The notes beneath the pieces are model-generated. The model made no database searches and was not told the origin of the DNA. It saw only the letters and a list, made by a program, of their open reading frames with translations. A program made the position numbers and the translations under genes. A stretch of DNA of 64,000 nt from an uncultured Alphaproteobacteria bacterium (lineage in GTDB: Bacteria; Pseudomonadota; Alphaproteobacteria; RF32; CAG-239): contig CALXTS010000006.1 in NCBI GenBank assembly GCA_944391465.1, positions 397 to 64,396 of the forward strand, given 5' to 3'. Position 1 is the stretch's first letter. Each line of letters begins with the position of its first letter. This document shows positions 13,831 through 64,000 of this stretch, one piece after another.

Positions 13831-13902
13831 TCATAAATTATATGCAATATAAAGATTTTGTACTGTTAGGTACAAAACATTGGGCAGAGTTTAAAATGTA
13901 TA

Positions 13903-13930
13903 TAAAAAAGCCACCCGATTAGGGGTGGCT
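13903..13930 (-). terminator. thrS rho-independent terminator
   Basis: AGCCACCC ... GGGTGGCT. On the minus strand the hairpin is followed by a T-run (complement of 13903-13908). Confidence 0.75.
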
Positions 13931-13948
13931 TCAAAATAAGCAATCAAA

Positions 13949-17341: not shown

Positions 17342-18490
17342 ATGACAAAATCAAGTAAAGCGAAACGTTACGGATATTGGATAATAGGAGTTTTTGCATT
17401 ATCCGTGTTATTTGTTATGTATTTTGAGGTACTGGATATAAAAAAGAGTAAAGCGGCGACCTCATCGCCATCAAATACTAAAGAGATGACTTTAAATGTC
17501 ATTCCCCTCAAACGCCAAAATGTTGAGTTGATAAATCAATATATTGGCTATATCACGCCGATAAAATCGGTCAGCCTTGTACCTAATATCAGCGGATATT
17601 TGCAAGATATTTGGGTACAGGGCGGACAGGAGGTTAAAATCGGAGATAATTTGATTCTTATACAGCAAGATGAGTACAAAGCACGTTTAGACGCAGCAGA
17701 AGCATCTGTTGGTCAGGCACAGGCAGCATATAATAATGCTTCAATTTATTACCAAAGGATAAAAAAAGCCTCATCAAAAGCAGTTTCAAAGACGGATTTT
17801 GATAATGCAAAAGCGCAATTCTTGAGCGCGCAAGCGGCACTGGCACAAGCAAAAGCCAACTACGCTCTCGCCAAAGTAAATTATGATTATACTGTTTTAC
17901 AGGCCCCCATAGACGGAATAGTCGGTAATGTTGACTTAACAGCGGGAAATTATGTTTCACCATCATCATCGCCTTTAATAAAAATTATCCAATACAATCC
18001 GATTCGCGTTGTTTTCTCAATCACGGATAAAGAATATATTCAGGAAATAAAAAACAATAAGGAAACTCTTTTTAAGGGTGAAAATATTAAATTGCGTTTG
18101 GCCAATAATATTCTTTATCCATATTCGGGAGAATTTAAATTTACGGATAATGAAATTAATCGTTCAACCAATTCTATATCCGTATATGCGGATTTTGCCA
18201 ATCCAGATAAGATGTTGGTAGCCAATGCCTATGTTGATGTTTTGTTGGAAAAAAAATTAAACGATGTTTATCTGATTAGGCAGAACTATGTCGATATGTC
18301 ATCAGGCGGAAATTTTATTTATACTGTTCGTGGCGGAAAAATATATAAAAATGCCATAGAAATTAGCGGAATCAAAGGAGACAACTATGTTGTAAGTGCA
18401 AATTTCGCCTCTGACGAATATTTGGTAACGGATAAGGTAAAGAAGATTCCGGAAGGGACTAAAGTAAAAATAAAACAAGTTGCCGAATAA
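17342..18490 (+). CDS. RND efflux periplasmic adaptor (membrane fusion protein)
   Basis: N-terminal anchor, an alpha-hairpin (AQAAYNNA...AQAALAQAKANYALAKVNYDYTVLQAPIDG), and a beta-barrel C-terminus. Confidence 0.9.
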   Translation: MTKSSKAKRYGYWIIGVFALSVLFVMYFEVLDIKKSKAATSSPSNTKEMTLNVIPLKRQNVELINQYIGYITPIKSVSLVPNISGYLQDIWVQGGQEVKIGDNLILIQQDEYKARLDAAEASVGQAQAAYNNASIYYQRIKKASSKAVSKTDFDNAKAQFLSAQAALAQAKANYALAKVNYDYTVLQAPIDGIVGNVDLTAGNYVSPSSSPLIKIIQYNPIRVVFSITDKEYIQEIKNNKETLFKGENIKLRLANNILYPYSGEFKFTDNEINRSTNSISVYADFANPDKMLVANAYVDVLLEKKLNDVYLIRQNYVDMSSGGNFIYTVRGGKIYKNAIEISGIKGDNYVVSANFASDEYLVTDKVKKIPEGTKVKIKQVAE

Positions 18491-18505
18491 AAGGAGTAAA
18501 CCAAA

Positions 18506-21500
18506 ATGTTATCGGAATTTTTCATAGATAAACCGAGATTTGCCGGAGTTATTTCAATCGTAATGGTTCTGCTTGGCTTGTTGGCAATAGTTGTTTTGCC
18601 GGTTTCTCAATATCCGCAAATAACACCGCCACAAATTGTCGTATCCACAACATATCCGGGAGCTAATGCACAGGTTTTGGTAGATACGGTGGCCATTCCG
18701 ATAGAAAATCAAATTAACGGGGTTGAGGATATGCTTTACATGTCCTCAACCTCAGATGATAACGGAAGCTACCAATTGACGATAACCTTTAATATCGGAA
18801 CGGATCCGGATATTGCACAGGTAAAAGTACAAAATCGTCTTCAGCAAGTGATGTCACAGCTTCCGGAACTCGTTACCAAAGAAGGGATTACCGTAAAAAC
18901 ACAAATGTCAAATATTTTGGGCATGTTGGCGTTACGTTCACCGCATAATACTTACAGTGATTTATATTTAAGCAACTTTGCATACAGCAATATCCAAAAT
19001 CCGTTGGGACGAATTCCCGGTATTGGAGATGTATCCATTTATGGTCCGCAATATTCAATGCGTATTTGGCTAAATGCCGATAAAATAACTTCGTTGGGGC
19101 TCAGTTCCTCAGATATAGCTAATGCAATTTCTTCACAAAACGTACAAGCCTCAATAGGAGAAGTCGGTTCTGCACCAAGTACGCCGGATACACCGATAGT
19201 ATTGTCATTGGCCGCCAAAGGGTTGTTGAATAATGTTGAAGATTTTCGAAATATAATTGTAGCCACTTCGGCAGACGGAGGAATTGTTCGTTTAAAAGAT
19301 GTTGCCCGAATAGAGTTGGGCGCGGATAGTTATAATATAAAAGCACATTATGACAGCGGAGCAGCGGTAATTATCGGATTAAGCCAAACCCCGAATACCA
19401 ACTCTCTTGAAATAATGAAAAACGTCGATAAAGAAATTGAGCAATTGAGCCAGACGTTTCCGGAAGATATGGAACTGATGGTCGCTTATGATTCAACAGA
19501 CTATGTACGAGCATCAATAGAAAGTATTATAGAAACTCTGGTAATTACATTTATGTTGGTTGTTTTGGTAACCTACGTATTTTTACAAAAATTTACCACA
19601 ACGCTTATTCCTTTAATAACAATACCCGTTTCTTTAGTGGCAACATTTGCCGTTATCTATGCGTTAGGCTTTGATATAAATATTTTAACGCTTTTCGCAA
19701 TGATTTTGGCCATCGGTCTGGTTGTAGATGATGCGATAATTGTGGTGGAACGTGTGCAATATCTGATGCTTTATGAAAAATTAAACGCTAAAGATGCTGC
19801 GGTTAAGGCCATGAAACAAATCGGTAGTGCAATTATAGCAACCACGTTTGTTTTGCTTTCAATTTTTGTTCCTGTAGGGCTAATGGCAGGAATTACCGGA
19901 AAAATTTACCAGCAATTTGCCGTAACTATAGCAACGGCGGTGATTTTTTCGGCATTTAATGCTCTGACACTCAGCCCGTCATTATGTGCAATTTTTTTAA
20001 GAGGCGGAACTCAAGAACAAGCCAACGGATTTTTTAAATGGTTTGATGAGACAATAGATTATTTTAAAGAAAAATATATTAATGTCGTAGGCTTTTTCTC
20101 TTCATACTTAAAAATAACGGTTTTAGTTGTTTTGGGAACAATAGCCTTAGTGGGGCTCGGGTTTAAAATAACGGCAACTTCATTTCTTCCGGAAGAAGAT
20201 CAGGGAATAATCTTTGCCAATATTCAGCTTGATGATACGGCAACAATCAACCAAACCAATCAGGTTTTGGAGGATATGACACAAAAAGTTTTAGAGATGC
20301 CGGGAGTGCGCTATTTTATAAACGTTGCAGGCTATTCAATGCTCGGAGGCGGAGGAGAAAATGTTGCCTTTGGAATGGTCGGCTTGGCACCGTGGTCTCA
20401 ACGTAAAACAAAGGAATTATCTATAGAAAGTATTACCAATAAACTTTTAGAAAAATTCAGAAATCAAAACGGAGCAGAAATTAACTTTTTTGCACCTCCG
20501 TCGATTCCCGGTATCGGAAAAAGCAGCGGTTTATCTTTAGAGCTTTTGGCAACAAACGGAAATACTACACCGATAGAACTATACAAAGTAATGGAAGATT
20601 TTCTGTATGAACTCAATAAAGATAAAGACTTGTCTTACGCGTTTAGCACGTTTACGGCAGAAACACCTCATATATATCTAGATATAGACAGAACCAAACT
20701 GGAAAGTTACGGAATCCCCGTTGCAAATTTATTTGAAACTCTGCAAACAAATCTAGGTTCGCGCTATATTAACAATATTACGCTAAGTGGTCAGGTTAAT
20801 AAAGTAATTATTCAAGCGGATTTTCCGTATAGAAAAAATATTGATGATGTAAAAAAATTATATGTTCCGAATTCTGAAGGAAATTTAATCCGAGTTGACA
20901 GTTTTGCAGATGTCAGAACAACAATCTCTCCGAAGATAATATATCGTTATAATCAATATACAGATGCCTCAATCGTAGCCCAAGCTCAAGAAAATGTCAG
21001 TACCGGAACGGCAATAGATGCCGTACGCAATATGGCAGATAAGATGTTATCAAAAGATTTCAAAATTGCTTGGACGGGATTAAGTCTGCAAGAAGTAGAG
21101 GCTTCAGGACTGGCAATAATCTTAATTACACTGGCTTTGATATTCTGTTATTTGTTTTTGGTTGCTTTGTATGAAAGCTGGATGTTGGCATTTGCAGTTA
21201 TGTTTTCAACGGTTTTTGCAATACTCGGAGCCATTATCGGTTTGCATTTAATGGGGCAGTCGTTAAGTATTTACGCTCAATTGGGATTGATAATGTTGAT
21301 AGGATTAGCCGCTAAAAATGCAATTTTGATTGTGGAATTTACTAAAGCCTATCGAGAAAACGGCGATACAATTCTTGAGGCTTCAAAAAAAGGAGCGGGA
21401 GAACGTTTTCGAGCCGTTTTAATGACAGCACTGACCTTTATTTTAGGCGTGTATCCGATGATAATAGCTAAAGGAGCTGGAGCGGCGAGCCAAATAGCTA

Positions 21501-21682
21501 TCGGAACATCTGTATTTTACGGAATGATAATGGCAACCTTCGTCGGTATAATTTTTATTCCGGCACTGTTTGCAGTTTTTGAGAATATCAAAGAGAGATT
21601 TGGAAAAAAAGATATTCAAGAAACTAAAGAACAAAATTCGGATTCTATTGTAAATACGGAAGGAGACAGGCGCAATGCGTAA
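18506..21682 (+). CDS. RND multidrug efflux permease (AcrB/HAE1 family)
   Basis: 1058 aa, 12-TM architecture. Conserved segments [21 protein letters not shown] and [11 protein letters not shown]. Confidence 0.95.
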
Positions 21683-23135
21683 GGTTTTAAGTATTTTTTC
21701 TGTGTGCTTGCTGTTGTCTTGCACGGTAGGTCCGGATTATGAACGACCTGAGTTTTATTCAGATGAAAATATAAAAAACAGCCTGAATTTAAAACCGATA
21801 AACAATAATAGCGTTTCTTTAGAATGGTATAAAGAATTTAACGATTCGATATTAAATGATTTAATTGCATCTTCAATAAAACATAATCCGAATGTCGGTG
21901 TTGCCAAAGAACGTCTCAGACAGGCAAGACAAAATTTTAAGATAAATAAATTTTCAATGTTTCCGACCTTGGATGCCGATGGTAGCTATCATTATGTTAA
22001 AGATAGTATAAGTTATGGCGTCCCGATATCTACAGACTATTTTCAAAGCGGATTGGATGCCAGCTGGGAGCTTGACATCTGGGGCGGAGGAACGCGTTTA
22101 ACCGAAAGCGCGCTTGCATTGGTTAATGCCGCCGGTGCAAATTTAAATAATGTTCGCCTGAGCTTAACCGCTGAGGTCGCATCAAACTATATAAGTTTGC
22201 GTCAAACCCAAGAACAATTGCGCATATCAAAAGAAAATCAAAAACTCCAACAAGAGATATATGATTTGGTAAATGAAAAATATGGTCTGGGTTTGACAGA
22301 TGACATTACGTTAAAACAGGCTCAGTATCTTTTAGAAAATACCAAAGCACAAATACCGGTATTGGAAAATGCTGTCAATGCGTATAAGAATTCATTGGCT
22401 ATTTTATCAGGAGAACTTCCGGGAACACTGGATGATAAACTGATTGATGTACAACCGAATTTGGTTTCCAAACAATTCAAATACAATCTGGAAAGATTGT
22501 ATCAGTTACCGATTGAAATCATCAGAAACAGACCGGACGTTCAAGTTGCCGAACAAAATCTGATATCAGATAACGCATTGATAGGGCAGGCCATATCAAA
22601 TTTATTTCCCGGTGTTAGCATCAGCGGTTTTTTAGGTTACCAAGGCGCTAAAATTCCGGGGTTAATAAGTAGTAATAATAGTATGTACAGCTATTCTCCG
22701 GTAATTAATATGCCGTTATTTCATTGGGGCGCACTGATAAATACGGTAGAACTTCAAAAATCTAAAAAAGAGGAGGCGTTGAAACTTTATCAATCAAGCA
22801 TATTGACCGCAGTGAATGATATTCGAAATTCAACGGATAAATTAGAAAAGGAATATCAAAGTAATGCCTCGGCATATCAAGCATGGCAGTCTCAAAAAGA
22901 GGCCGATAGTTTGACTCTTGATAAGTATAAACAAGGCTTGATTGCTTTTAATGAAGTTTTGTCCTCACAGCAAAATTTATTATCCGCGCAACAAAGCTAC
23001 ATAAATAGCAACGCCAATATATATCAGGATATTATAAGTTTTTATAAATCTGTTGGCGGTGGATATCAAACAAAACTCAAAAGTTTATATAAACCGATAA
23101 AAGAGTGTAATCAGCCTACATCTCAGGAACACTAA
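21675..23135 (+). CDS. Efflux outer membrane factor lipoprotein (NodT family)
   Basis: Lipobox LLSC followed by [10 protein letters not shown]. Its start overlaps the end of the RND gene, which suggests translational coupling. Confidence 0.9.
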
Positions 23136-25332: not shown

Positions 25333-25701
25333 ATGGACGTTTCTCAAAAGTATGCTCAAACAGAGGTTTCCGGAATGAAGCAGTCCGAACTAGAAAGTCG
25401 GGCGCTGATAAAAACGGCATCTCATTTGAACCTAATTAAGGAGCATTGGGATGAAAAGAACTCCGAGCTGGAAGAGGCGTTAGAAAAGAATAGAAAATTG
25501 TGGGCGATTTTAGCATCGGCAGTAGCTGAGAATGAAACGCCTTTGCCGGAAGAAATAAAGAAAAGTATATTAAGTCTGGCAATGTTTATATTCCAAAGAA
25601 CTGTGGAGATTCTAACACATCCTGCTCCCGAAAAATTAAATATTCTGATAAATATAAATATGAATATTGCCAAAGGCTTAGGCGGAAACGCAGATAAATA
25701 A
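25333..25701 (+). CDS. flaF: Flagellar biosynthesis regulator FlaF
   Basis: 122 aa. The segment NRKLWAILASAVAENETPLPEEIKKSILSLAMFI matches the FlaF signature N..LW....D....N.LP..L...I..L as I recall it. Confidence 0.75.
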   Translation: MDVSQKYAQTEVSGMKQSELESRALIKTASHLNLIKEHWDEKNSELEEALEKNRKLWAILASAVAENETPLPEEIKKSILSLAMFIFQRTVEILTHPAPEKLNILININMNIAKGLGGNADK

Positions 25702-25722: not shown

Positions 25723-25759
25723 AAAGCCCCCGTTTAACAAGAACGGGGCTTTTTATTTT
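25723..25759 (+). terminator. flaF terminator (first part of the conserved cassette)
   Basis: AAAGCCCCCGTT ... AACGGGGCTTT followed by TTATTTT. Confidence 0.7.
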
Positions 25760-25781
25760 GTCCTCCTGATAAAATTATTGA

Positions 25782-25810
25782 TTGACATAAGCAAGATGCA
25801 GATTTATAAT
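25782..25810 (+). promoter_or_regulatory. Consensus sigma-70 promoter of Cys-rich gene A
   Basis: TTGACA (25782-25787), a 17-nt spacer, and TATAAT (25805-25810), preceded by the A/T-rich AAATTATT. Confidence 0.75.
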
Positions 25811-25933
25811 AAAATAAACAGTATGGAGAAATATTCCCTAATCCACCCGCATCAATTTTGTCAGGGAACGCTTTTCATATGTCAAAGTGATGTTCTTCAT
25901 ATTGCTTTTAAATATAAATTGAGGAGGATGGCC

Positions 25934-27064
25934 ATGCAGAAGCGTTGGATTAAAATTTTCTTCACAGTAGCTGTAGCAGTATTAATTTCCTCAACAGTTT
26001 CCGCAGGGATTATATCATTACCAAGATATACGGGAGAATTTGCATATAGGACAAGCACCGGAGGAAGAGATGGTGTCTGCTCTTCATCATATCAATATAC
26101 TTGTAGTGGAACCGGATATTCCGGAGGCTCAGGAGCATCTTGCGGTGGAAAGTATCAATCATGTATCTGTACTTCAGATTATAAATGGTCTGGAGGAAAA
26201 TGTGTTTTAAAGAGCTGTTCGGACTATGGATATTTAGCATCAAAAGATACATCGAAATCCTGTACCGAGAAAACACCTCGTACAGGATTAACCTGCTATT
26301 CATGCACAGGATGTGATACCAATGTTTATAAGTATAATTGCTCAGGTGGTATAAATTCTACGACGCAGAGTAGTAATAGTTGTAACAGTTTATATGATGA
26401 ATGTAGCTGTGTGACAAATGCCACATGGAATGCGACAAGTGGAAAGTGTGAATGTAAAACAGATTATAAAGTCAGTGGCACCTCATGTGTCTTAAAAACC
26501 TGTTCGGATTACGGATATTTGGAAAGTTCGGATAGTACAAAGAGTTGTACGAGTAAGACACCACGGACGGGATTAACCTGTTATAGTTGCACAGATTGTG
26601 ACAGCAGTTATAAATATAATTGCAGTAGTATAACAAATGCAAGTGGCGGAGATGGTAGTTCTTGCGGCGGAAAATATCAAAAATGTACATGCAAAAGTGG
26701 TTACTACTGGAGTAACGGAAGTTGTGTAAAAAGTTGTACAGCTGTTTCATGCGAAGGAGCAACAGCATGTAATGGTAAAAGTTGTACAATATTTAAATCA
26801 TCGGCAATAACCAACGCTTCTGAGTTGGGAACGGGAATTGGTAGTTATGCATCTTGTAGTCCAACCAATTGTAGCGGAACCTCATACAAATATGGCTACC
26901 TTCCGACAGCGTGTGCTACCGGTTATGCCGGATATGATATCGGTGATTGTCCAATACCATTTACAACAGATTGCGATACTTTGGGATATAAATGGGAAAG
27001 CTGTTCAGAATCACAACAAGAATTGAAATGCTTATTTAATAGTGCCAAAGTTTTTTGCTATTGA
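25934..27064 (+). CDS. Secreted cysteine-rich repeat protein (376 aa), paralog family of the 2534-aa giant
   Basis: GAGGAGG lies 6 nt upstream of the ATG at 25934. Signal peptide MQKRWIKIFFTVAVAVLISSTVSAG. C-x-C modules include SCGGKYQSCICTSDYKW and SCGGKYQKCTCKSGYYW. The ORF-track start at 25778 lies inside the promoter. Confidence 0.8.
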   Translation: MQKRWIKIFFTVAVAVLISSTVSAGIISLPRYTGEFAYRTSTGGRDGVCSSSYQYTCSGTGYSGGSGASCGGKYQSCICTSDYKWSGGKCVLKSCSDYGYLASKDTSKSCTEKTPRTGLTCYSCTGCDTNVYKYNCSGGINSTTQSSNSCNSLYDECSCVTNATWNATSGKCECKTDYKVSGTSCVLKTCSDYGYLESSDSTKSCTSKTPRTGLTCYSCTDCDSSYKYNCSSITNASGGDGSSCGGKYQKCTCKSGYYWSNGSCVKSCTAVSCEGATACNGKSCTIFKSSAITNASELGTGIGSYASCSPTNCSGTSYKYGYLPTACATGYAGYDIGDCPIPFTTDCDTLGYKWESCSESQQELKCLFNSAKVFCY

Positions 27065-27086
27065 TTAAATATTGAGGAGAAAGAAA

Positions 27087-28019
27087 ATGAAAAACTCAGG
27101 AAGAAATTTATTGCTAGTATATTGTATTGTGGTTTTCTCCATAATATTTAATCAACGAGTCGCACAAAGTGCATGTATAGCATCAGATTGTGATGCGTTA
27201 GGATATAAATATACAAAAGCAGAATGTGGAGATTCAAATATTGTTGTTTGTCCATTTGATAATTCTAAAGTTTTTTGTAAGCCGGCAGGAAAACCTAAAC
27301 TAATTATTAATTGGTTTTATTCTCCAGGGATAAAAATAGTAAGACTTGATGCTAAAAAGAATGGAGAAAGTACCTATTTGGGTAATTTAAGTGAAGGAAC
27401 ATATGGGTCTTTTGTCTATGAAAATGTAGCTGTAGGAGATGTTTTTTCTTCGTTCAGTGGGTATGGAATGGCTAATGATAGCCCAAGTGGTTCTGAATCA
27501 TGGGAGTTAAAGGATTTATCGTCATCGGTAGGAGCTGTGAATATTGCAATTACAGAATCAAAAGAATATACGGTAACTGTTATGCTTTCTCCGGCAGATA
27601 GAGACAGCAGTCAATCCTATCAACCAAAGATACTTTGTACAGAATTCTCAGGGGTATCAAGAACGCCAGAAGCAGTCAATCCGTCTAAAGGCTGTGCTTC
27701 ATCTAATGATTTTGTAACGTATTTTCAAAATACAACAAATCCTTTAGTTAAAGTTTATACAGATAATGTAAATCCAACAACAAGAACATGGTCAGGAGGA
27801 GTATGTTCAGAATTATATGTTCCAGATAGTCAAACAGCTACGTTCTACGCTCAGAATACTGTAAGTGGATGTGGATATAACTGTAGTTTAAATAAGGTAT
27901 ATTACATGAGTTCAAGTAGTACAACAATTGATAATGCAACAGAGTTTGCAACATTAAATGATGGATATTTCACATCATCTAAGACAGGAACGTGGTATGC
28001 TAACTATAAATGTAATTAA
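27087..28019 (+). CDS. Secreted protein with an N-terminal Cys motif shared with the upstream gene's C-terminus
   Basis: GAGGAG lies 7 nt upstream of the ATG. It has a signal peptide. The segment DCDALGYKYTKAECGDSNIVVCPFDNSKVFC parallels DCDTLGYKWESCSESQQELKCLFNSAKVFC at the end of the 25934-27064 product. Confidence 0.7.
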   Translation: MKNSGRNLLLVYCIVVFSIIFNQRVAQSACIASDCDALGYKYTKAECGDSNIVVCPFDNSKVFCKPAGKPKLIINWFYSPGIKIVRLDAKKNGESTYLGNLSEGTYGSFVYENVAVGDVFSSFSGYGMANDSPSGSESWELKDLSSSVGAVNIAITESKEYTVTVMLSPADRDSSQSYQPKILCTEFSGVSRTPEAVNPSKGCASSNDFVTYFQNTTNPLVKVYTDNVNPTTRTWSGGVCSELYVPDSQTATFYAQNTVSGCGYNCSLNKVYYMSSSSTTIDNATEFATLNDGYFTSSKTGTWYANYKCN

Positions 28020-28035: not shown

Positions 28036-28075
28036 AAAACAAAACTTCCGAAATTTTTCGGAGGTTTTGTTTTTC
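28036..28075. terminator. Bidirectional terminator between the Cys-rich operon and galE
   Basis: AAAACTTCCGAAA ... TTTCGGAGGTTTT (one G-U pair), flanked by A-rich and T-rich runs. Confidence 0.7.
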
Positions 28076-39440: not shown

Positions 39441-40016
39441 ATGAGAACAAATTTTTTGTTTTTTGAAGGAACATCGATAGATGTAGTTCAAGCAGAACTT
39501 GAAAAAGCAGGCTTGCAGACAGAACGTGTTTATAACGCGGTAAAAATTGTTTTGGAAAATGAATTTACCTTTGGTAAGAAAGTTGTCGTCAAACAGATTC
39601 CAAATATTGTAGCCGCAGTTGTCCGATTTGAAAAGCATGGAGAACTTCTGGATAAGCTACGGAAAATATCTTACTCAAAAGACATAGTCTTTGGTGATAA
39701 TAATCGTAAAGGCTTAGGTTTGGAGAGTAAATATTTCCATATTGTTTTCAGCAAGGAAAATATGCAGCAGGCAATCCAGCGTTGGATAAGAGCTTCCAGA
39801 ATTGAAGAAGAAAATAAAAACACGATTTTTGTTGAAGGGTATTTTATTGATGAAGGCAATAGAATTGAAGGATATAGTTTCTATAATCCGTATTGTCCGA
39901 ATTCCCTAGATGTTGAACACAGCTTTAGACGCTGGGAATACTCTTCCAGAGGCTTATTGGCAAGAATGGGCTTTAAGACATCGTTGCAAAATGCCGGTGT
40001 TTATCGATTAATTTAA
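39441..40016 (+). CDS. Hypothetical protein (191 aa)
   Basis: An intact ORF with its own terminator (AGCACTGAAA/TTTCAGTGCT, 40035-40065, plus a T-run). I recognise no domain. Confidence 0.45.
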   Translation: MRTNFLFFEGTSIDVVQAELEKAGLQTERVYNAVKIVLENEFTFGKKVVVKQIPNIVAAVVRFEKHGELLDKLRKISYSKDIVFGDNNRKGLGLESKYFHIVFSKENMQQAIQRWIRASRIEEENKNTIFVEGYFIDEGNRIEGYSFYNPYCPNSLDVEHSFRRWEYSSRGLLARMGFKTSLQNAGVYRLI

Positions 40017-41982: not shown

Positions 41983-41988
41983 AGACTG

Positions 41989-45264: not shown

Positions 45265-48200
45265 ATGTTAAGACTAAAAAAGTTTATCCTTTTTTTGAGT
45301 GTGCTTTTTATAGCAAAAATAGCGGTTGCTGCAATTGTGTCAATTAATGAGACACAGTTCAGCAGTCGGTCATTGTCTTCACCATTAAATTCCGATGATG
45401 GCGGTTACACTTCTACATATAGTGGAGTCGAGTGTGGTTATTATACTTCATATACAGCAGAAGATTGCCAATCAGTATTAGGCGTTTCAAGTGCATCGGA
45501 ATACACGGCAACAGAATGTGATGGTGGAAAATATACATGTACCTGTTCGTCAGTATATTCTAAAACATGTGACGGTAGTGATGAAATTCCGTCAGGCCCT
45601 TCTTGTAAGAGTACCGATTCTGAGGGAAACCCGATTCTGAAATATAAAGAATGCAAAGCATTGTCAACGCTCAATTGTGCAGATATTAAAGGAGAAGAGG
45701 TTACTAGTGAGAGTGACTGTAGAACATTGTTGGGGCGCTCATATATGGAGGGAAGTTACCTGTCATGTTCAGAGGACGATGCTACCAAACAGTTCTGCGC
45801 GTATCCCCATTGTTCAGTTTTAGAAAATCGCAGTGAAGACGCCACCAAAACATTTACAAATACAGCGCCAAGTCAAGCCGATGCCATTCAAAATGGAAAA
45901 TGTTACGATTCATCGGGAGATGTTTTAGATGTATGGTATTGTCCAACCTCTTATACAGAACTTCTGATGCCAACATGTACGGATGACCGTTCCCCGATAA
46001 TTTGTGATTTACAAACAACAACTTTATATAAGCCGGAGTGCCAATATCCGGATTGTACAAGTTCAAATATGACGGTTATGAATAACCGTACGGTTATTAC
46101 CACAAGTTTGACCCCAAAAAGCAGTTGTCCGAGTAGTGGTTTCCTTGCCGGCGTAAAAGGTAAGATGTGCTATATTGATAAAACAACAGATGATAAGGGA
46201 GAAAACACGGATAAAAATCTCTACAATACTTGCACATGTCCAGAAGAATATGCCTATACAGCAGAGAGTTGTAAACTGGAGGAAGGGGATATTGAAGGAG
46301 CTGAGGTCGTTCCTATTGTTTCAAGACAGGCGGTTCCATCATTCTATACATTCACATCATCAGGTTCAACTTACACGGTTAGCGGATTGCAATATTATGA
46401 TTACTGCTATTGGGATGCTCAAAATTCAGGTCCTGTAGGTGATGCATTCTGTAGCTCAAACTATACTTCAGGAACTTCTGCATATAATACATGTATGCAA
46501 CATAAAGGACTTTCTGCAGAATTCGATACAGCAAAGTTTAAATACAAAGGGTGTGCATCTCTGTGTCCGACAACAAAATATGCCGATTTGATGGAGGTTT
46601 CTGTTGCTGAGGGGACATCTATGAATGGGTGTGCCGCGCAAGATGCCGAAGTTGTCCGTTGTGCGGTTCCTGTTAGTACAATAAATACAGATCCTGGATA
46701 TGATTCGTATCTTCTGAACAACAAGATTGCAAACGTTAAAATAAATTCGATTTCTAATGATAATGGAGGGGTTTCTTATTCAGGAGCCTTTGGTTTGACA
46801 GATATTTCCACCAAGGATTTTTATTTTGAAAAGGCATATTGCCGTTGTCCGGACAGTTATAAAGTTACATGTCCGTCAGGAACAATTCCGGGAGGAAAAG
46901 AATGTATTACGGAAGATGGTGTTGTAAAATATCAATTATGCCTGCCTGTATGTGATGAAACAACTGAAGGTAAAAAGATTACCAGCAATCCGACTACAGA
47001 AAGCTGTGAAGGAATTTCACAAAAATACAACAATGAAGGTGGTGATAGCGATTTAGCATCAGGAAAATGGTTCTGTGCTAATGCTGCCAGCAGTTCAGGG
47101 ACAGGCTACAGTAAATCAACTTGTGCATCATCAATAGGGACAATCAAGATTTGTTGTCTAGAAAATGGTGATGGAACCACTAGTAAAACTTGTTATAGCA
47201 ATTTTGTTCCGGGAGGTAAAACGGGATCCTATCAATACTGTTTTCCGTATGGGGAAACGCCACCGCATCAGGCTTGTTTCAAGAATGAATATGAAACAGA
47301 AGAGGCTTATTGGCAGTGTAGTTGTGTAAATTATAGATCAGAAGAGGATTGTCAGGCTCAAGATGAAAAACTACATGGAGCCGGAAAAATCTGTACTTTA
47401 GAAGGTAAAACAACTCCAAAATATGAAACATGTTCGGCAGCATGTGCAAATGATGGATCTGAATACATTGCAGCAACGACAGAAGAATGTAAACTGTCAA
47501 ATGGTGTCCAAACACCATATGAGGCTTGTTATATTGCAGGATCAGAGACTGAACAATATAGGTGTTCATGTCCGGAAAGTGGCTATACCAGTATAAAAGA
47601 CCACTGTGAAAGTGAATATACAGATCCGGAAGAAATAAATACTTGTCAAAGTTATACGATAGGTTTGGGAATCCCTTGTGAATTTGAGGCATATAAAGAC
47701 AATACAACGCAAGCATATTTAATTAAATATGAAGGTTTCGCCACACGTTGTAGTTTTTATACCAAAACGGAAGGTGAAAGCATAACCATAGCCGATAGTC
47801 TGAATAAGTGTCAAATGGGGAATGAAATAGCCAATGATCCATGTTATATGGACGTTAACGATTTAAGATATGTTTGTCGTTGTCCAAAAGCATACATAAG
47901 TTTGGATGAATATTGCGCTGGCGTTGTAGCCTCAGGAGAACTGGATGATAACGGGCAAGCATACACACTTGAGACATGTAAATCGGTTTATGTGGGAGAA
48001 GGTGTTCCTTGTAGTTTTGATGTTGATAAAACAACAAAATTAAAGATTGATAAGTTCACTAAATTTTCCAAACGTTGCCCGACAGATCGTCCTGTTTTTG
48101 ATAATCCATCAGATTGCTCAATTAATGGAAGTACCCCACAATATACGGTATGTTATAATGAAAATAATCAGGGCGTAGCAAAATATGTATGTTCTTGTCC

Positions 48201-51200
48201 GTCAGACTTTGATAATCAGTGCTATACAGAAGACGGTGCCGTCGATATGACAAAGATTCGCGGCGGAACATCTTGTAATTTTGAATCATATGATCCGACC
48301 AAGACGAAATATTCTGAATGCTTACCACAATGTAATAACACATCATTAACGCCGGTTGTTACAAATGCTGAAGAATGTCCGATGGTAAACGGGCAACCGG
48401 CTAAAGTAACTACTCAATGCTTTAATAAATTCGGGGATGAGGCAAAATATTACGTATGTGGATGTCCGGATGGTTATCAGACTTTGGAAGAATATTGTGC
48501 AAGTTCGGAATCTGAAGGGCAAAAAGGTGTAACTTATGATGGTATATTCTATACAGAGGCAGAATGCTTGAAAAAGTTCACCGGAGTAGGTGTTGCTTGT
48601 ACATATGATAATTTGACCAGCAAAAAATACAATAATTTTGCCATCATCTGTCCGACGGATAGACCCCTGTTTTACAGTGCAGAAGAATGTGTATCCGAAG
48701 GAATCAACGGAACAGTTGAATCGACATGTTATGAAAAGGATAATTTATTACAGCAAAGAATTATTTGTAAGTGTCCGTCAGATTGGGTTGATATAAACGG
48801 AAAGGATGCCGGAGGAAATCAAGTTTGTACGGGAGATACCGAAGCCTCAGGTTTGCAATGTAGTTTTGATGGACTTGATGCAAATTCTATAAAATATGCT
48901 CAATGCTATACCAAATGCGATAAACTTCCGACGAATGGAAAAGGTATAACCTATATTGAAGAGGAAGAAGCCAGTGAGGCAGAGTGTAAACTTCTGCTAG
49001 GAGAAGGGGCAACATACGGCGTAAATGAAAAAGAACCGACTTGTAGTCGTAATCATAGCTTATTCTACCCATGCTATTGTGGAGCAGATTATGTGTCTCA
49101 ATGCTTGTTGAGTGATAATACACACCCTAAAGATGATGCTCTGGCATGTACAATAGGAGATGTAACCTATTACAAAGAAACAGATTGCCAAAACAACGAC
49201 TGCGTAGAAGAAAGTTCAACCGTTGCAATTGAAGCTGAGCCGGAAGGATATACAGGTACAGCGGAGGCTTATTGTCAAGAACATTATGGAGACGGCTCAA
49301 CCGGTATTTTCTGTAATGTTGATGGAAAAGCAAGCATCCAGTGTACATGTGATGCCAGAACATATACGGAAACTTGCGATTATCCTTACACTGTTCCTGT
49401 AAAAAAACCGGCAGCCGGTGGTAAGTCTTGGTGTAAGTATGGTGAAGGTTCAACTCTAATGAAAGATGGTCAAGACCACTTTAAGTTAGGGGAATGTAAA
49501 GTAAAAGATTTATTGGCCAAATGCGGTGAACATATTTTGAATAGTGACGGTACGGAAAATACGTCTTATACAATTAAAGTAACATCAACGGAAAATGAAT
49601 GTACAACAAAATATGGTACCGGAGCAAAAACACAATTATGTGAATACAGCTCAGATAACAATAAACGCGGTTATAACTGCTATTATAATTTGAGTGATTT
49701 TCCGGTAACGGAGGCATCATGTCCGGTTCGCCACGTTTTGAGTAAAGAATATATTATTGAAAACGGCGTATATCATTATAAATCTTGTGATTGCCACCAA
49801 GCCTATAAATATCATAAATACAACTGCGCCGGAATGCTAAGCGGCGGAGCATGTTCTCAAGTCGTTTCCAAAGATTTGGAAGTTTATGATGAAACATTGG
49901 AAGGTCAAATTGGCAATGAATTAACATTTTATCCATATTGCCAGTGCACACCGGACTATAATCAAGAATGTGACGGTGAGCGTAATGTCGGTGTTGGAAA
50001 ACCCTGTAACGGAAAATATTTAGCCTGTGAGTGTAAACCGGATGAATTACCTGAAAACTGGGCGGATAACTATTATGGATGTCCGGGAGGCAAGAAGCCT
50101 ACGGGAGTGATAAAACCAAACGGATGTGGCGGAAAATATTATCAATGTTCGGTAACCGAATGCACATGGCAACACACGGAAACTTGTCCGGAGCCGTTAA
50201 TAGGGGTTGATGCTTGCCAAGATAATTTAGGAAACATCGGTGGATATAAAAGTTGTCAGGTTCCATCTGAGTGGAAAATCTGTGCTGAAGATACAATAGG
50301 TAAGGGTGAGCCATTAATCTATAAAGGTAAGTACTATTACAAAGAATGTGTTGATCAAGGAACGTGCGTCCATGGAGAAACGCAAACTTGCCAAGCAGAG
50401 TATCTTGTTGGTGTAAATGCATGCACAAGAAATAATGTCACATATTTTGAATACTGTGTCTGTGCTAAAGGTTTTGATAAAATTTGTACTGACGGACAAG
50501 TCGGAGTAGGTACATCATGCAAATTAAATGGTGTTGAGTACTATGCAGCATGTGAAACACCGGCAACGGAATGTACCTCAGATCATAAATTGGCTTGTGA
50601 TACCAATCAGGAAAAATATGAACCATGCGTGAAGGATAATACAACGCTAATGTATAAGTGTCGTTGTCCGCAAAACTGGGAAAGCTGTTCTGAAACCGGT
50701 GCTGCATCGGGTGCTGAAAAATGTACGGATGTAAATGGTACGGTTTACAGCCAATGTGAAGTTACGGAAACCTGTAGCGCAAATCAAAGTCTGACATATT
50801 CCGTATGTACAAGTTCTCAAAAAGGAATGGGCGGAAGTTGTATTGAAGATGGGGTGATTAAATATGCCGTTTGCGAAGAAACATCATCCTGCCGATTAAA
50901 CGGATATCAATATGCATGTTTAGGTTTTGAAACCTCAGCGTTAGGAGACGATTATTGTATTGATGAAAACGGTAATAAACTTTACAAAGAATGTAAGTGC
51001 CCGAGCAATTATGTTGAATGTCCTAATAAAACCAATACCAAGGGGACATCATGTACTCCGCTGAATCAGAACGGAACTTCAGGAACGACAGTTTATGCAT
51101 CTTGTACCTGCAATGATACGATTTATAAATATGATTGTCAGGCAGCTGAAAGCGGAAGTGGCGGCAATGAAGGAATTATTCCGGCCGGAAAGAAATCTTG

Positions 51201-52869
51201 TACACCGGTTACCTATGACAGTGCAACAGGAGAAGCTGTTGAAGGGACAACGCTTTATGAGTCTTGTGATTGTGCTGAAGGATACCAATACACATGTACC
51301 GGAAACGGACATTTTGTAGAGACAGGACAGGGTTATTGCCAAAAATACAGCAATGCAGCGAAATTATACAAATATTGTAATTGTGAAGAACAGTATCAGT
51401 ATTTGTGTACGGCAGATGAAAGCGGAAGAGGAATAGGTTTAACAGCACCACAAGATGAGAGTAAAAAGTGTACGCCGTTAGGTGGTGATAGTACAACAAA
51501 ATATTCAGAATGTCAGTGTGGCAATGAATATAACTTGACATGTGAAGGAAATGCTCAACAGCCGGGAAATGGCTATTGTTTAGGTGAAGATGGAGTAACC
51601 TATTACAATACTTGTACTTGTGATACGACTATATTCCAGTTTGATTGCAAAGCATCAGGTGCAAACAAAGGGGTCACGGTTCCGTCAACAACCAGTGATA
51701 AACGTTGCTTAGAACAAAAGTATGTTAATGGGTTGTTGACATCTACACAAAGATATATGGGCTGTAGCTGTAAGTCTGATTATAAATATCAATGTTATGA
51801 TGATTCCGAAAAAATTCCTGGTAGTAGCGAGAATTACACAAGCAGCAAATATGAAAGCAATGACAGTGATTATTGCGAAACGGCAGAAATGACTTCTCAG
51901 GAAGTATCAGGAGAAGATGGTTCAACCAGCACAGAATGGGTAATTGGAGAAACAACGAGAAAATATCAAAAATGTGAATGTCTGGGAAACTATATCACAC
52001 AGTCGGAATGCCAAGCAAAAGCCAATCAGTATGATTGGACAACAACTGAAGATCAAATGACAGATTATTGTTTAGAGGTCAGTAACAGTGGAACCATAAC
52101 CAAAAAGTACAATGAATCTTATTGCGGTTGTGTTCCAAATAAAACTCAAGATGAGTATGAAGATGACGGATATTGGTTATCATCAGTTAATGATCCGACA
52201 GCAAGCAGTGCAACCCGCACAATATTTGAACAAGAGGTTAAAGCAAAGTGTAATGATGAAAGAAACTTTGAATATGTTAAAGATGGATGCGGAAAAGTTT
52301 GGGCTAAATGCTTAAAAAAAGATTGGTATACTAATGAAAGCTGTGCAACCCGTTCAACAAAGGAGGCTCCGGATAGCGTAGTAAAATGGGTTGGAACCGG
52401 AAGTTCCGAAAGTTTAAAAAATACATTTGGAACATACGTCACTTTATATGAATCATGCGGATGCCCATCCAGTAATACGGTTGTAGATTGCGATAAATAC
52501 AGTGTTGTAACACAGGACACAAATCTATTCTGCACCAATTCTCCGTGGTATGGAAGTTACTATAATGGAAAGAATAAAAAAGAAGGATGTGCAGTACAAA
52601 GTGATAAAGGAACTCAACTAATAGTCAAATTAGATGAGAATACTATGTGTATCACTCCGGATGGAGAAAAAAAGTATCAGAGATGTAAGTGCAAAGAGAT
52701 ATATGATATGTCAGTTTATCCGGGATGTATGACTAAATTCCAAGGAGACCCGAGTAAAGCAGCCGATGATGCGGCATGTTGGGAATATGGAAGACGTGTT
52801 ATTACATATAATGGAGGCGGTGCTCAAAATGATTGTAGTTGTGTCTATCCATATAAAACAAGCTGTTAA
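45265..52869 (+). CDS. Giant secreted cysteine-rich C-x-C repeat protein (2534 aa), family unknown
   Basis: One uninterrupted 7.6-kb ORF. Signal peptide MLRLKKFILFLSVLFIAKIAVAA. Dozens of Y-x-x-C-x-C-x(2-3)-[YFW]-x(1-5)-C modules. No TM segment, enzymatic motif or known secretion/anchor domain that I recognise. Confidence 0.85.
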   Translation: MLRLKKFILFLSVLFIAKIAVAAIVSINETQFSSRSLSSPLNSDDGGYTSTYSGVECGYYTSYTAEDCQSVLGVSSASEYTATECDGGKYTCTCSSVYSKTCDGSDEIPSGPSCKSTDSEGNPILKYKECKALSTLNCADIKGEEVTSESDCRTLLGRSYMEGSYLSCSEDDATKQFCAYPHCSVLENRSEDATKTFTNTAPSQADAIQNGKCYDSSGDVLDVWYCPTSYTELLMPTCTDDRSPIICDLQTTTLYKPECQYPDCTSSNMTVMNNRTVITTSLTPKSSCPSSGFLAGVKGKMCYIDKTTDDKGENTDKNLYNTCTCPEEYAYTAESCKLEEGDIEGAEVVPIVSRQAVPSFYTFTSSGSTYTVSGLQYYDYCYWDAQNSGPVGDAFCSSNYTSGTSAYNTCMQHKGLSAEFDTAKFKYKGCASLCPTTKYADLMEVSVAEGTSMNGCAAQDAEVVRCAVPVSTINTDPGYDSYLLNNKIANVKINSISNDNGGVSYSGAFGLTDISTKDFYFEKAYCRCPDSYKVTCPSGTIPGGKECITEDGVVKYQLCLPVCDETTEGKKITSNPTTESCEGISQKYNNEGGDSDLASGKWFCANAASSSGTGYSKSTCASSIGTIKICCLENGDGTTSKTCYSNFVPGGKTGSYQYCFPYGETPPHQACFKNEYETEEAYWQCSCVNYRSEEDCQAQDEKLHGAGKICTLEGKTTPKYETCSAACANDGSEYIAATTEECKLSNGVQTPYEACYIAGSETEQYRCSCPESGYTSIKDHCESEYTDPEEINTCQSYTIGLGIPCEFEAYKDNTTQAYLIKYEGFATRCSFYTKTEGESITIADSLNKCQMGNEIANDPCYMDVNDLRYVCRCPKAYISLDEYCAGVVASGELDDNGQAYTLETCKSVYVGEGVPCSFDVDKTTKLKIDKFTKFSKRCPTDRPVFDNPSDCSINGSTPQYTVCYNENNQGVAKYVCSCPSDFDNQCYTEDGAVDMTKIRGGTSCNFESYDPTKTKYSECLPQCNNTSLTPVVTNAEECPMVNGQPAKVTTQCFNKFGDEAKYYVCGCPDGYQTLEEYCASSESEGQKGVTYDGIFYTEAECLKKFTGVGVACTYDNLTSKKYNNFAIICPTDRPLFYSAEECVSEGINGTVESTCYEKDNLLQQRIICKCPSDWVDINGKDAGGNQVCTGDTEASGLQCSFDGLDANSIKYAQCYTKCDKLPTNGKGITYIEEEEASEAECKLLLGEGATYGVNEKEPTCSRNHSLFYPCYCGADYVSQCLLSDNTHPKDDALACTIGDVTYYKETDCQNNDCVEESSTVAIEAEPEGYTGTAEAYCQEHYGDGSTGIFCNVDGKASIQCTCDARTYTETCDYPYTVPVKKPAAGGKSWCKYGEGSTLMKDGQDHFKLGECKVKDLLAKCGEHILNSDGTENTSYTIKVTSTENECTTKYGTGAKTQLCEYSSDNNKRGYNCYYNLSDFPVTEASCPVRHVLSKEYIIENGVYHYKSCDCHQAYKYHKYNCAGMLSGGACSQVVSKDLEVYDETLEGQIGNELTFYPYCQCTPDYNQECDGERNVGVGKPCNGKYLACECKPDELPENWADNYYGCPGGKKPTGVIKPNGCGGKYYQCSVTECTWQHTETCPEPLIGVDACQDNLGNIGGYKSCQVPSEWKICAEDTIGKGEPLIYKGKYYYKECVDQGTCVHGETQTCQAEYLVGVNACTRNNVTYFEYCVCAKGFDKICTDGQVGVGTSCKLNGVEYYAACETPATECTSDHKLACDTNQEKYEPCVKDNTTLMYKCRCPQNWESCSETGAASGAEKCTDVNGTVYSQCEVTETCSANQSLTYSVCTSSQKGMGGSCIEDGVIKYAVCEETSSCRLNGYQYACLGFETSALGDDYCIDENGNKLYKECKCPSNYVECPNKTNTKGTSCTPLNQNGTSGTTVYASCTCNDTIYKYDCQAAESGSGGNEGIIPAGKKSCTPVTYDSATGEAVEGTTLYESCDCAEGYQYTCTGNGHFVETGQGYCQKYSNAAKLYKYCNCEEQYQYLCTADESGRGIGLTAPQDESKKCTPLGGDSTTKYSECQCGNEYNLTCEGNAQQPGNGYCLGEDGVTYYNTCTCDTTIFQFDCKASGANKGVTVPSTTSDKRCLEQKYVNGLLTSTQRYMGCSCKSDYKYQCYDDSEKIPGSSENYTSSKYESNDSDYCETAEMTSQEVSGEDGSTSTEWVIGETTRKYQKCECLGNYITQSECQAKANQYDWTTTEDQMTDYCLEVSNSGTITKKYNESYCGCVPNKTQDEYEDDGYWLSSVNDPTASSATRTIFEQEVKAKCNDERNFEYVKDGCGKVWAKCLKKDWYTNESCATRSTKEAPDSVVKWVGTGSSESLKNTFGTYVTLYESCGCPSSNTVVDCDKYSVVTQDTNLFCTNSPWYGSYYNGKNKKEGCAVQSDKGTQLIVKLDENTMCITPDGEKKYQRCKCKEIYDMSVYPGCMTKFQGDPSKAADDAACWEYGRRVITYNGGGAQNDCSCVYPYKTSC
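47557..49080 (+). repeat. Five diverged tandem ~90-105 aa repeats inside the giant ORF
   Basis: Repeat units start at 47557 (YRCSCPESGY), 47869 (YVCRCPKAY), 48184 (YVCSCPSDF), 48451 (YVCGCPDGY) and 48763 (IICKCPSDW). The series closes at 49066 (YPCYCGADY). Each unit carries an internal G-x-G-x-x-C-x-[FY]-[DE] element. Confidence 0.8.
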
Positions 52870-63124: not shown

Positions 63125-63167
63125 TTTTGTTTCTCAAATTGTAATAAAATCTTTATACAAATAAATA

Positions 63168-63197
63168 AGGCCCCTCAATTGAGGGGCTTTATTTTGT
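63168..63197 (+). terminator. Terminator (first part of the second conserved cassette)
   Basis: GCCCCTC AATT GAGGGGC followed by TTTATTTT. The hairpin is nearly identical to the mlaC terminator at 13598-13615. Confidence 0.75.
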
Positions 63198-63217
63198 CCG
63201 CCCAATGAAATTATTGA

Positions 63218-63246
63218 TTGACTCATTGTGATAAGTAGAGTATATT
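63218..63246 (+). promoter_or_regulatory. Near-consensus sigma-70 promoter of Cys-rich gene B
   Basis: TTGACT, a 17-nt spacer, and TATATT, preceded by the same AAATTATTGAT block seen at 25772-25784. Confidence 0.7.
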
Positions 63247-63247
63247 A

Positions 63248-63371
63248 AAAGGGTAACATGCAACGGAACAAAGTCTAAAACCGCATATTACACCAGACTT
63301 TCAGGAATTTTCGGCGCCACCGAAAGTCTTTCTGTTGCATGTTACCTTTATTTATTATTGAGGAGGCGGCC
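63248..63371 (+). promoter_or_regulatory. Structured 5' leader of Cys-rich gene B (terminator-like long hairpin with alternative inner pairings)
   Basis: A 13-bp perfect stem GGTAACATGCAAC (63252-63264) / GTTGCATGTTACC (63334-63346), followed by TTTATTTATTATT and then the RBS. Inside, AGACTTTC (63295-63302) can pair with either AAAGTCT (63270-63276) or GAAAGTCT (63322-63329). Confidence 0.5.
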
Positions 63372-64000
63372 ATGCAGAAGCGTAATCTTTTATATTTAAG
63401 TATATTAGCGGCAATAATATTTTGTTTTTCATATGCGCATGCCGCAATCCAGTTTTTACCCCGATATCAAGGAAGTTATGAGGGACGAGTTGAAGATGGC
63501 GGCCGAGATAAGGTAGAAGTTTCTTGCGAATCTTTTGGTGGTGTTACAAAAGGCGCAAACCAAATGTGTACAGGGCAATTTATAAGAGCCGGATTGACCT
63601 GTTATAAATCTTGTTCTTGTGATAAATCAAAATTTCAATATACAATAGCCTCGCATCAAGGGTCAGGGAAACTTTGTGAATCACTATCCAATGCCTGTAC
63701 GGATAGTGCCGGAACCTCTTATTCAAACTGTGTTTTGAATACATGTAATGTTCGAAACTCAACATGGATTAGTGAGAGCAGTAAAGCAAGTTATACATCT
63801 AATAACTACACATGTACCACACAAAACACATCAGGAAAAGATGGAACCTGTTATGTTTGCGCTTGTCCATCATCCTGGGCAACGGGAAGTTGTCCGGCCA
63901 ATTCGGCAACCTGTTCAACATGTAAAGCGATAAGTCCATATACAGTATCAAAATTTAATTTGGTATCGTGTAAAGCAGGTTATTATAAGAATGGCAATAG
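63372..64000 (+). CDS. Secreted cysteine-rich protein, third small paralog (5' partial; runs off the window)
   Basis: Hand translation gives MQKRNLLYLSILAAIIFCFSYAHAAIQFLPRYQGSYEGRVEDGGRDKVEVSCES...RAGLTCYKSCSCDKSKFQY...CYVCACPSSW..., open to the window end. It shares MQKR, LPRY-G, GGRD and R-[TA]-G-L-T-C-Y with 25934-27064. It is absent from the ORF track because it has no stop in the window. Confidence 0.75.
   Translation, partial: MQKRNLLYLSILAAIIFCFSYAHAAIQFLPRYQGSYEGRVEDGGRDKVEVSCESFGGVTKGANQMCTGQFIRAGLTCYKSCSCDKSKFQYTIASHQGSGKLCESLSNACTDSAGTSYSNCVLNTCNVRNSTWISESSKASYTSNNYTCTTQNTSGKDGTCYVCACPSSWATGSCPANSATCSTCKAISPYTVSKFNLVSCKAGYYKNGN

Follow-up and report, generated by a model that had tools for sequence, protein, structure and literature searches.

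What do two adjacent, unannotated genes for secreted, cysteine-containing proteins encode together, and why does the same arrangement recur elsewhere? The question is raised by a stretch of 64,000 nucleotides (the window hereafter; contig CALXTS010000006.1, assembly GCA_944391465.1, forward strand) from an uncultured Alphaproteobacteria bacterium, in which gene 1 is directly followed by gene 2. A first-pass annotation of this DNA had described the pair as a two-gene operon of small Cys-rich relatives of a giant protein encoded in the same window. Our analysis indicates that the gene pair is real, unannotated and more structured than was seen then; how its products would work together we infer. 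The organising feature, missed in that annotation, is a conserved pairing: a gene ending in a small Cys-rich module, designated here as modC, is followed by genes starting with the same module. We tentatively read the pair, at somewhat below an even chance, as a self-contained bicistronic cassette that would encode a binding complex of the cell envelope or surface, made of two Sec-exported parts and stabilised by disulfides.

Operon anatomy and the two gene products

Genes 1 and 2 form a real two-gene operon. This is well supported because a promoter, two Shine–Dalgarno sequences, a spacer of 22 nt with no plus-strand terminator predicted in it, flanking terminators and signal peptides are all present (Table 1); the coordinates, the strong ribosome-binding site of gene 2 and the signal peptides reported in the first-pass annotation hold. 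The operon is isolated from upstream transcription, since the terminator of the preceding flaF gene lies ahead of the promoter. Apart from its hydrophobic signal peptide, neither product has a membrane segment. Longer open reading frames (ORFs) initiated at TTG are not used by the orthologues, which start with MQK… (gene 1) and MKNSG… (gene 2).

The gene 1 protein contained 40 Cys (10.6%), and all four motifs quoted earlier for its C-x-C grammar were found, as was the signal peptide. Its repeats follow the order A-B-A-B-A and are succeeded by a Cys-rich spacer and a C-terminal modC. Module A (~41 aa, consensus YxYxCSGxGYxGGxGxxCGGKYxxCxCxxxYxWxxGxC) occurs in three copies, and module B (~35 aa, consensus CxLKxCSDYGY…KxC…GLxCYxC) in two, scoring 65.8 and 62.5 bits. 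A total of 183 homologues of gene 1 were found. The L-P-R-Y-x-G…G-G motif, located just past the predicted cleavage site of the signal peptide, is invariant in the family, and so are all the Cys of the repeat lattice, a pattern that in sequence is typical of structural disulfides.

An AlphaFold2 model of gene 1 (39-sequence alignment) had a predicted local distance difference test score (pLDDT) above 90 over aa 50–260 and consisted of short beta-hairpins; this part is confidently predicted to be a rod of ~200 residues. The nearest structures in a Foldseek search of the PDB were Pfs25, Pfs28, MSP1-19, Jagged and the cysteine-rich domains of TNFR, none of them significant (best E 0.12); against BFVD, only fibres were retrieved, also non-significantly. 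As modelled, gene 1 resembles EGF and TNFR proteins in class, as a disulfide-knotted rod, which does not by itself place it in their families.

In the gene 2 protein, 12 Cys (3.9%) were found, 11 of them in the mature form, and this odd count is retained in the orthologues. Neither module A nor module B was detected by profile, and no similarity to the giant protein was found (best BLASTP E 1.6). The sole link between genes 1 and 2 is modC, a stretch of ~33–37 aa (BLASTP E 1.5e-4). Close relatives of gene 2 comprise two orthologues (56–58% identity), the fusion protein P0124/P0127, and P0125 and P0126, which retain the signal peptide and modC of gene 2 and carry a different domain afterwards. 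Exhaustive phmmer searching of 1.84 billion representatives added ~70 proteins, nearly all matching the signal peptide and modC only; no match to the C-terminal domain was found there, and aa 95–168 gave weak matches to a protein of 11 Big_9 repeats (E 2e-6) and to a protein with a weak CBM_6 domain (E 6e-5). Because the AlphaFold2 model of gene 2 (4-sequence alignment, pLDDT 39.8) was unusable, its central and C-terminal parts are termed only beta-rich here. A diverged Lcl_C domain at the C-terminus was considered and rejected: when the gene 2 family was compared with 14 Lcl_C proteins by hhalign, the alignment covered the signal peptide and modC stretch only (probability 98.3%, E 1.7e-14).

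Conserved pairing of modC-bearing genes

In a six-frame translation of the window, modC was present in two places only, the C-terminus of gene 1 and the N-terminus of gene 2. It was found in 174 of the 199 fetched proteins, in a total of 214 copies (153 N-terminal, 10 at the extreme C-terminus and 51 internal). Four Cys of its core are conserved at 89–100% and a fifth at 74%. The possibility that the first modC Cys marks a lipoprotein was rejected, the lipobox [LVI][ASTVI][GAS]C being violated: gene 1 has no Cys before residue 49, gene 2 reads VAQSA-C with Q at −3, and in the majority of modC proteins position −1 is occupied by Q, E or D.

Wherever contigs could be read, a gene-1-class homologue was followed by one or two genes encoding a signal peptide, modC and a variable C-terminal part. 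This pairing extends across nine loci from two clades of uncultured Alphaproteobacteria (the window, L005, L013, L015–L018, L019 and L021), and the surroundings of the cassettes differ from locus to locus. P0002 is followed by P0122, a gene 2 orthologue, with the spacer length of the window in another neighbourhood (L005); P0018 by P0126 after 11 nt (L013); P0003 by proteins of 182 and then 299 aa (L015); P0005 by a protein of at least 169 aa at the contig end (L016); P0006 by proteins of 182 and then 262 aa (L017); and P0009 by a protein of 325 aa (L018). In the distant clade (~47% G+C), a different Cys-rich protein, ending in …VTDCAALGYTSTSCGGRKLVCPYDSGLFFCM, precedes the modC-led P0038 (L019) or P0021 (L021).

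The part behind modC appears to be exchangeable, since P0126 of L013 has the signal peptide and modC of gene 2 and a head homologous to the Lcl_C region of P0021 (E 4e-19). The 590-aa P0127 is a natural fusion of a gene-1-like N-terminal motif (LPDWQG…GGG) and A-type repeats with the central domain of gene 2 (57% identity, E 6e-25); by the Rosetta-stone argument, the gene-1-like and gene 2 parts probably work together.

In many relatives, modC and module A occur together with PF07603 (Lcl_C/DUF1566) and PF05689. One of them, P0038, is the target of a classical diversity-generating retroelement (DGR): it adjoins bAvd and an RVT_1 reverse transcriptase, and between its 3′ end GACACCGTCGACGCGTGGGGCGTGTACGCCAGTGGCGGCGATGTG and several AAC-rich template copies (e.g., GACAACAACAACGCGTGGAACGTGAACGCCAATGACGGCAATGTG) all differences fall at adenines of the template. 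The complete DGR is located at positions 5381–16400 of L019 (ENA ERZ28753057 contig_5014), contains at least seven AAC-rich copies resembling a template repeat (TR) and targets the Lcl_C end of P0038. The same locus is also full of arrays of ~150–300-nt repeats (6765–7900, 9440–11100 and 13860–14900). Proteins of the DUF1566/DUF823 type are a recognised class of DGR targets, exemplified by the surface-exposed LdtA of Legionella, and the known DUF1566-type targets are lipid-anchored (PMC5758913). Neither RVT nor Avd was found among the ORFs of the 64-kb window.

Table 1. Features of the gene 1–gene 2 operon and of related genes in the window. Protein positions (aa) refer to the gene named; profiles of modules A, B and modC were built from distant homologues only; HMM, hidden Markov model.
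Feature	Location	Strand	Remarks
flaF intrinsic terminator	25728..25748	+	8-bp stem, 5 GC pairs, then T-run
Conserved 31-bp promoter-proximal element	25756..25786	+	TTTTGTCCnCCnnATnAAATTATTGATTGAC; ends in −35 box
Sigma-70-type promoter	25782..25810	+	TTGACA-17-TATAAT; 12/12 consensus positions
Gene 1 5′ leader	25818..25906	+	Long closing helix CAGUAUGGAGAA…UUCUUCAUAUUG; diverged member of the gene-1-class leader
Shine–Dalgarno of gene 1	25921-27	+	GAGGAGG
Gene 1	25934..27064	+	ATG 25934 to TGA 27064; 376 aa
Gene 1 signal peptide	aa 1-25
Gene 1 LPRYTG…GGRD motif	aa 26-48
Gene 1 module A1	aa 49-90		58.9 bits (profile match aa 51-90)
Gene 1 module B1	aa 90-127
Gene 1 module A2	aa 128-174		22.9 bits (profile match aa 131-172)
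Gene 1 module B2	aa 185-222
Gene 1 module A3	aa 223-264		45.0 bits
Gene 1 Cys-rich spacer	aa 265-338
Gene 1 modC	aa 339-375, 26948..27058	+	CPIPFTTDCDTLGYKWESCSESQQELKCLFNSAKVFC; modC HMM 21.2 bits
Shine–Dalgarno of gene 2	27074-79	+	GAGGAG
Gene 2	27087..28019	+	ATG 27087 to TAA 28019; 310 aa
Gene 2 signal peptide	aa 1-29
Gene 2 modC	aa 30-64, 27174..27278	+	CIASDCDALGYKYTKAECGDSNIVVCPFDNSKVFC; modC HMM 25.4 bits
Gene 2 central beta-rich domain	aa 65-177
Gene 2 C-terminal domain	aa 178-310		6 Cys
Bidirectional terminator	28045..28074	.	Hairpin CTTCCGAAATTTTTCGGAGG then TTTTGTTTTT; common to convergent epimerase gene; minus-strand site predicted
Giant Cys-rich protein	45265..52869	+	2534 aa; 8.1% Cys
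Third gene, upstream region	63162..63346	+	Terminator hairpin 63162-63190; 31-bp element 63192-63222; leader 63252-63346
Third gene, gene-1-class paralogue	63372..64000	+	Cut by window end

Paralogues, regulatory elements and neighbourhood

The gene cut by the end of the window, proposed previously as a third family member, is indeed a paralogue of gene 1: the two have in common the N-terminus MQKR…LPRYxG…GGRD (BLASTP E 9e-10) and the motif R-[TA]-G-L-T-C-Y. Between near-identical strains (window 63162–64000, L010 11900–14311 and L011 11880–11960 were compared), its flanks and first ~150 nt, to codon ~50, are 98–100% identical, after which identity drops abruptly to 56–74%. In the divergent part, Cys are retained, 70 codons differ non-synonymously and 32 synonymously. 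The L010 allele encodes 723 aa with Ephrin_rec_like repeats (33.6 bits vs. a cut-off of 23.1). In a third strain, the whole third-gene cassette is absent, and the junction lies within a terminator hairpin (GCCCCTCAATTGAGGGG) present as a direct repeat on either side of the cassette. The MlaC gene, too, is followed by a near-copy of the hairpin (window 13598–13615).

The giant protein had no Pfam or NCBIfam match, and its pairwise BLASTP similarity to gene 1 was marginal (E 5e-4). With the module A profile, it scored 18.6 bits at aa 1564–1591, and a further four domains reached 5 bits or more; scores in 2000 shuffles, global or local, peaked at 13.7 bits, and no shuffle contained two or more such domains. 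The whole-family HMM gave 5.2 bits vs. a shuffle maximum of 2.4. As the profile scores exceed every shuffle, the relation is real, if remote, and confined to the repeat grammar of module A. The modC module, the N-terminal motif, the 31-bp promoter element and the leader were all absent from the giant, which has an upstream region of its own. Directly upstream of the giant gene (window 40197–45090) are genes for a TetR regulator, a membrane-fusion protein (MFP) and a resistance–nodulation–division (RND) pump, and a second MFP-RND-OEP set is present at 17342–23135; no link between these sets and the Cys-rich proteins was found.

The 31-bp element preceding gene 1 has only the two window copies given in Table 1, was not found in any of 100 shuffles and is absent upstream of the giant. 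It was also found upstream of gene-1-class cassettes in L005 (4606–4632), L010 and L015 (~5795–5826) and, with one mismatch, in L017; it occurs in two species and in different neighbourhoods. It may serve a small regulon as an operator or UP element.

The leader of gene 1 was recognised by a covariance model with 40.5 bits (E 3e-6). Minimum-free-energy folds of eight leaders have a closing helix with a 13-bp consensus (GUAAYAUGC…GCAURUUAC), in which eight pairs show compensatory changes. In addition to the two leaders of the window (Table 1), those of L005 (4662–4770), L013 (415–516), L015 (5856–5970), L016 (4866–4967), L017 (4872–4970) and L018 (22–112) were located. They are 89–115 nt long and usually contain the invariant hairpin UUUCGGCGCCACCGA; at most loci, the helix ends 25–30 nt before the start codon. 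The covariance model matched only ahead of gene-1-class genes, with no further copies in the window, in the distant loci or upstream of the giant. Rfam gave nothing at gathering score in the window and nothing at E ≤1 over the leaders of six loci, and two JGI metagenome scans, one with the promoter element and one with the leader pattern, returned no matches. The leader is a candidate for a new cis-regulatory RNA.

Searches of Pfam, NCBIfam, PHROGs and PADLOC with genes 1, 2 and 3 gave no match except Ephrin_rec_like in the long gene 3 allele; genes 1 and 2 had no Pfam match at E ≤1, and no known anti-phage defence or phage family (PADLOC, PHROGs) was matched by any of the three. The family profiles of genes 1 and 2 found nothing in a sequence search of the PDB. 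The modC profile search returned only short fragments named "hypothetical protein", the only name given to family members in the sources searched. Neither gene 1 nor gene 2 is named or assigned there, in agreement with the first-pass annotation, which had called the family uncharacterised.

The relatives that could be placed belong to metagenome-assembled genomes (MAGs) of uncultured Alphaproteobacteria/Pseudomonadota from rumen and gut; genome collections list them as "Alphaproteobacteria bacterium", with roe deer and goat among the sources of the gut samples. On scaffolds of matching G+C, the same metagenome assembly has at least two additional cassettes, with P0003 and P0006 as their first genes, and a second species has two cassettes. 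Together with ~180 unnamed relatives, these bear out the earlier suggestion of a lineage-specific expanded family. A roe deer rumen Alphaproteobacteria MAG (L007, 5493–9383) encodes a 1296-aa Cys-rich protein with a module-B-like segment and duplicated segments containing WSGWSxCSxxCSG, which we take to resemble the thrombospondin type 1 repeat signature.

No secretion or modification gene adjoins the operon according to Pfam searches of its neighbours, consistent with the lack of an obvious partner reported before. Among the products of the window are FlaF, proteins of the flagellar rod, ring and hook, RND pumps and MlaC, a set that marks the cell as diderm. Gene 1 is preceded by flaF (25333–25701), and in another species P0005 (L016) is its positional counterpart, behind flgF-G-A-H-flaF (751–4730). 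The giant adjoins a flgL-like/flgK/flgN-like/rod-binding (flgJ)/flgI cluster (window 52965–59119), the third gene lies 4 kb from this cluster, and P0021 adjoins flgI in L021 (2620–8644). This recurrent flagellar adjacency of the Cys-rich superfamily may reflect synteny or a functional link. ORFs without a Pfam match are located at 52965–54926 (−), 3130–4170 (+) and 39441–40016 (+); the first (653 aa) occupies the flgL position next to flgK.

Between strains (window vs. L002 and L003), gene 1 differs at 0 of 1131 nt, gene 2 at 4 of 933 nt, the adjoining flaF at 27 per kb and the compared DNA overall at 124 of 13133 nt (9.4 per kb). The invariance of gene 1 suggests a recent sweep, transfer or strong constraint.

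Explanations of the gene pair and comparison with known systems

The operon anatomy, the module architecture in nine loci, the fusion protein, the DGR link of a relative and the hypervariability of a paralogue are observed; the mechanism that follows is proposed. Gene 1 would be the stalk, an elongated rod of disulfide-knotted beta-hairpin modules with a conserved mature N-terminus and a C-terminal modC; gene 2 would be the head, with modC at its N-terminus followed by domains of putative beta-sandwich type. The modC modules would join heads to the stalk or fix both proteins to one common site. The heads would be interchangeable, other cassettes having lectin-like Lcl_C/DUF1566 heads, small lectin-like domains or further repeats, and in the distant clade a DGR would hypermutate the head. 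Export beyond the periplasm and ligand binding are suggested by the Lcl_C heads of sister cassettes, the DGR-targeted relative and the hypervariable paralogue, and docking through modC by the head-to-tail arrangement of the module and by the fusion protein. The surface or adhesin role raised in the first-pass annotation thereby gains indirect backing, through the Lcl_C/DUF1566 heads, the single DGR target and the third gene. A bolder version, in which modC is an undescribed disulfide-knotted docking domain, stalk and exchangeable heads (DGR-hypermutated ones included) form a surface fibre, and the 31-bp element and leader RNA define a regulon, seems to us rather doubtful.

Several observations weigh against the stalk-and-head complex. 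Stand-alone modC proteins exist (P0070), and the third gene has neither modC nor a partner gene. The modC identity between genes 1 and 2 is 0.46 within a locus and 0.45 between loci; as these values are equal, no signal of modC co-evolution is seen. The pLDDT of modC in the gene 1 model is low, and the Foldseek matches of this model are non-significant. The "beta-sandwich" of gene 2 is a weak assignment, derived from weak Big_9- and CBM6-like matches, the model being unusable at its very low pLDDT. The invariance of gene 1 is not expected of an exposed antigen under diversifying selection, and no route for translocation across the outer membrane is encoded nearby.

Part of these observations would also fit if modC were a common anchor or sorting module, for instance one that binds a component of the outer membrane, lipopolysaccharide or peptidoglycan or that is recognised by an export or folding factor, with the partners not bound to each other; it would then replace the lipid anchor of other DUF1566-type surface proteins. 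The weightiest of the rivals, this explanation is nevertheless unlikely in our estimation. Besides the stand-alone proteins and the missing co-evolution, it accounts for why 153 of the 214 modC copies directly follow a signal peptide, ahead of many unrelated C-terminal domains, and it suits the mostly violated lipobox, given that DUF1566-type DGR targets are lipid-anchored (PMC5758913). It leaves two things unexplained: the placement of modC at the very end of gene-1-class proteins, with modC-led genes coming next in nine loci, and the ability of the fusion P0127 to do without modC. Next in weight, and clearly improbable, is the view that both proteins are periplasmic or are secreted as soluble effectors (a toxin- or bacteriocin-like pair, or redox or Cys-rich metal-binding proteins), with no stalk or head role. 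Polymorphic effectors are typically associated with Cys-rich secreted proteins and with loci that vary by strain, the third gene is such a locus and is missing from some strains, and no anchoring mechanism was identified; however, no toxin, immunity or defence domain was found (Pfam, NCBIfam, PHROGs, PADLOC), and the invariant Cys in a lattice of the structural-disulfide type, the predicted 200-residue rod of gene 1 and the lectin-like heads of relatives all speak against this view.

The earlier version, with gene 1, gene 2, the giant and the 63372 gene as four paralogues of one Cys-rich family, has little chance as a whole. Gene 1 and the 63372 gene are clear paralogues with a common promoter element and leader, and in the shuffled-control comparison the giant stands above all shuffles with the module A profile (18.6 vs. 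13.7 bits), so that this part stands, with the giant as a remote member that nevertheless lacks modC, the N-terminal motif, the promoter element and the leader. For gene 2, the claim is refuted: a protein with so few Cys, no A or B module and a best E of 1.6 against the giant is not its Cys-rich relative and is linked to gene 1 by modC alone. Least probable of all are flagellum-associated envelope components (sheath, basal-body-associated or filament-decorating), to which the positions of gene 1 behind flaF, of P0005 behind flgF-G-A-H-flaF, and of the giant, the third gene and P0021 beside or near flagellar genes could point. The flaF linkage, however, may be plain synteny of related species; the operon has its own promoter behind a terminator, no flagellar neighbours were found in L005, L013, L015, L017, L018, L019 and L020, and none of these proteins has a flagellar Pfam domain.

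To our knowledge, metagenomes of rumen and gut are the sole source of information on the lineage, and we are aware of no account of its contacts with hosts, protists, phages or other microbes. If the stalk-and-head complex proves true, the cassette would be the main variable contact apparatus of the lineage; three new mini-domains absent from Pfam (A, B and modC), possibly a new principle of protein docking, a new N-terminal scaffold for DGR-diversified lectin heads and a candidate cis-regulatory RNA would be added. The module HMMs, the promoter motif and the leader model are handles for metaproteomic and population-genomic tests.

Among known systems, DGR targets of category "d" (DUF1566/DUF823/Fib_succ_major, of the CLec2 type; e.g., LdtA) are secreted and have conserved Cys and a variable ligand-binding head (PMC5758913). 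Distant relatives, P0021, P0038 and P0053 among others, resemble them, with modC and module A followed by PF07603/PF05689. Unlike these proteins, genes 1 and 2 have neither Lcl_C nor a lipobox, the putative stalk and head are placed on two genes, and no reverse transcriptase, Avd or TR is present in the window.

A comparable logic, a repetitive stalk with a C-terminal binding domain, is found in the Legionella collagen-like protein Lcl, which has a stalk of collagen repeats, and the Lcl_C domain itself occurs in sister cassettes. Here, in contrast, the stalk would consist of the disulfide-knotted modules A and B, and gene 2 does not have an Lcl_C head. Structurally, the confidently modelled part of gene 1 comes closest to eukaryotic EGF-like and TNFR repeats (Pfs25/28, TNFR1, CD40, Jagged), also built of ~40-residue beta-hairpin modules held by disulfides; the similarity is limited to E ≥0.12 and a template-modelling (TM) score ≤0.3, no EGF or TNFR Pfam model matches gene 1 at E ≤1, and its Cys spacing is its own. 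One module A copy in L017 had a weak cEGF match (E 0.0016). Ephrin_rec_like/GCC2_GCC3 (PF07699) is present in the L010 allele of the third gene, P0018 and P0019 and absent from genes 1 and 2. Finally, by analogy only, the arrangement recalls the cohesin–dockerin system, in that a small dedicated module would join interchangeable subunits to a scaffold encoded nearby. The two are unrelated in sequence (Pfam), and modC would differ in being a knot of four to five Cys instead of a Ca-binding module and in occurring as the same module on both partners.

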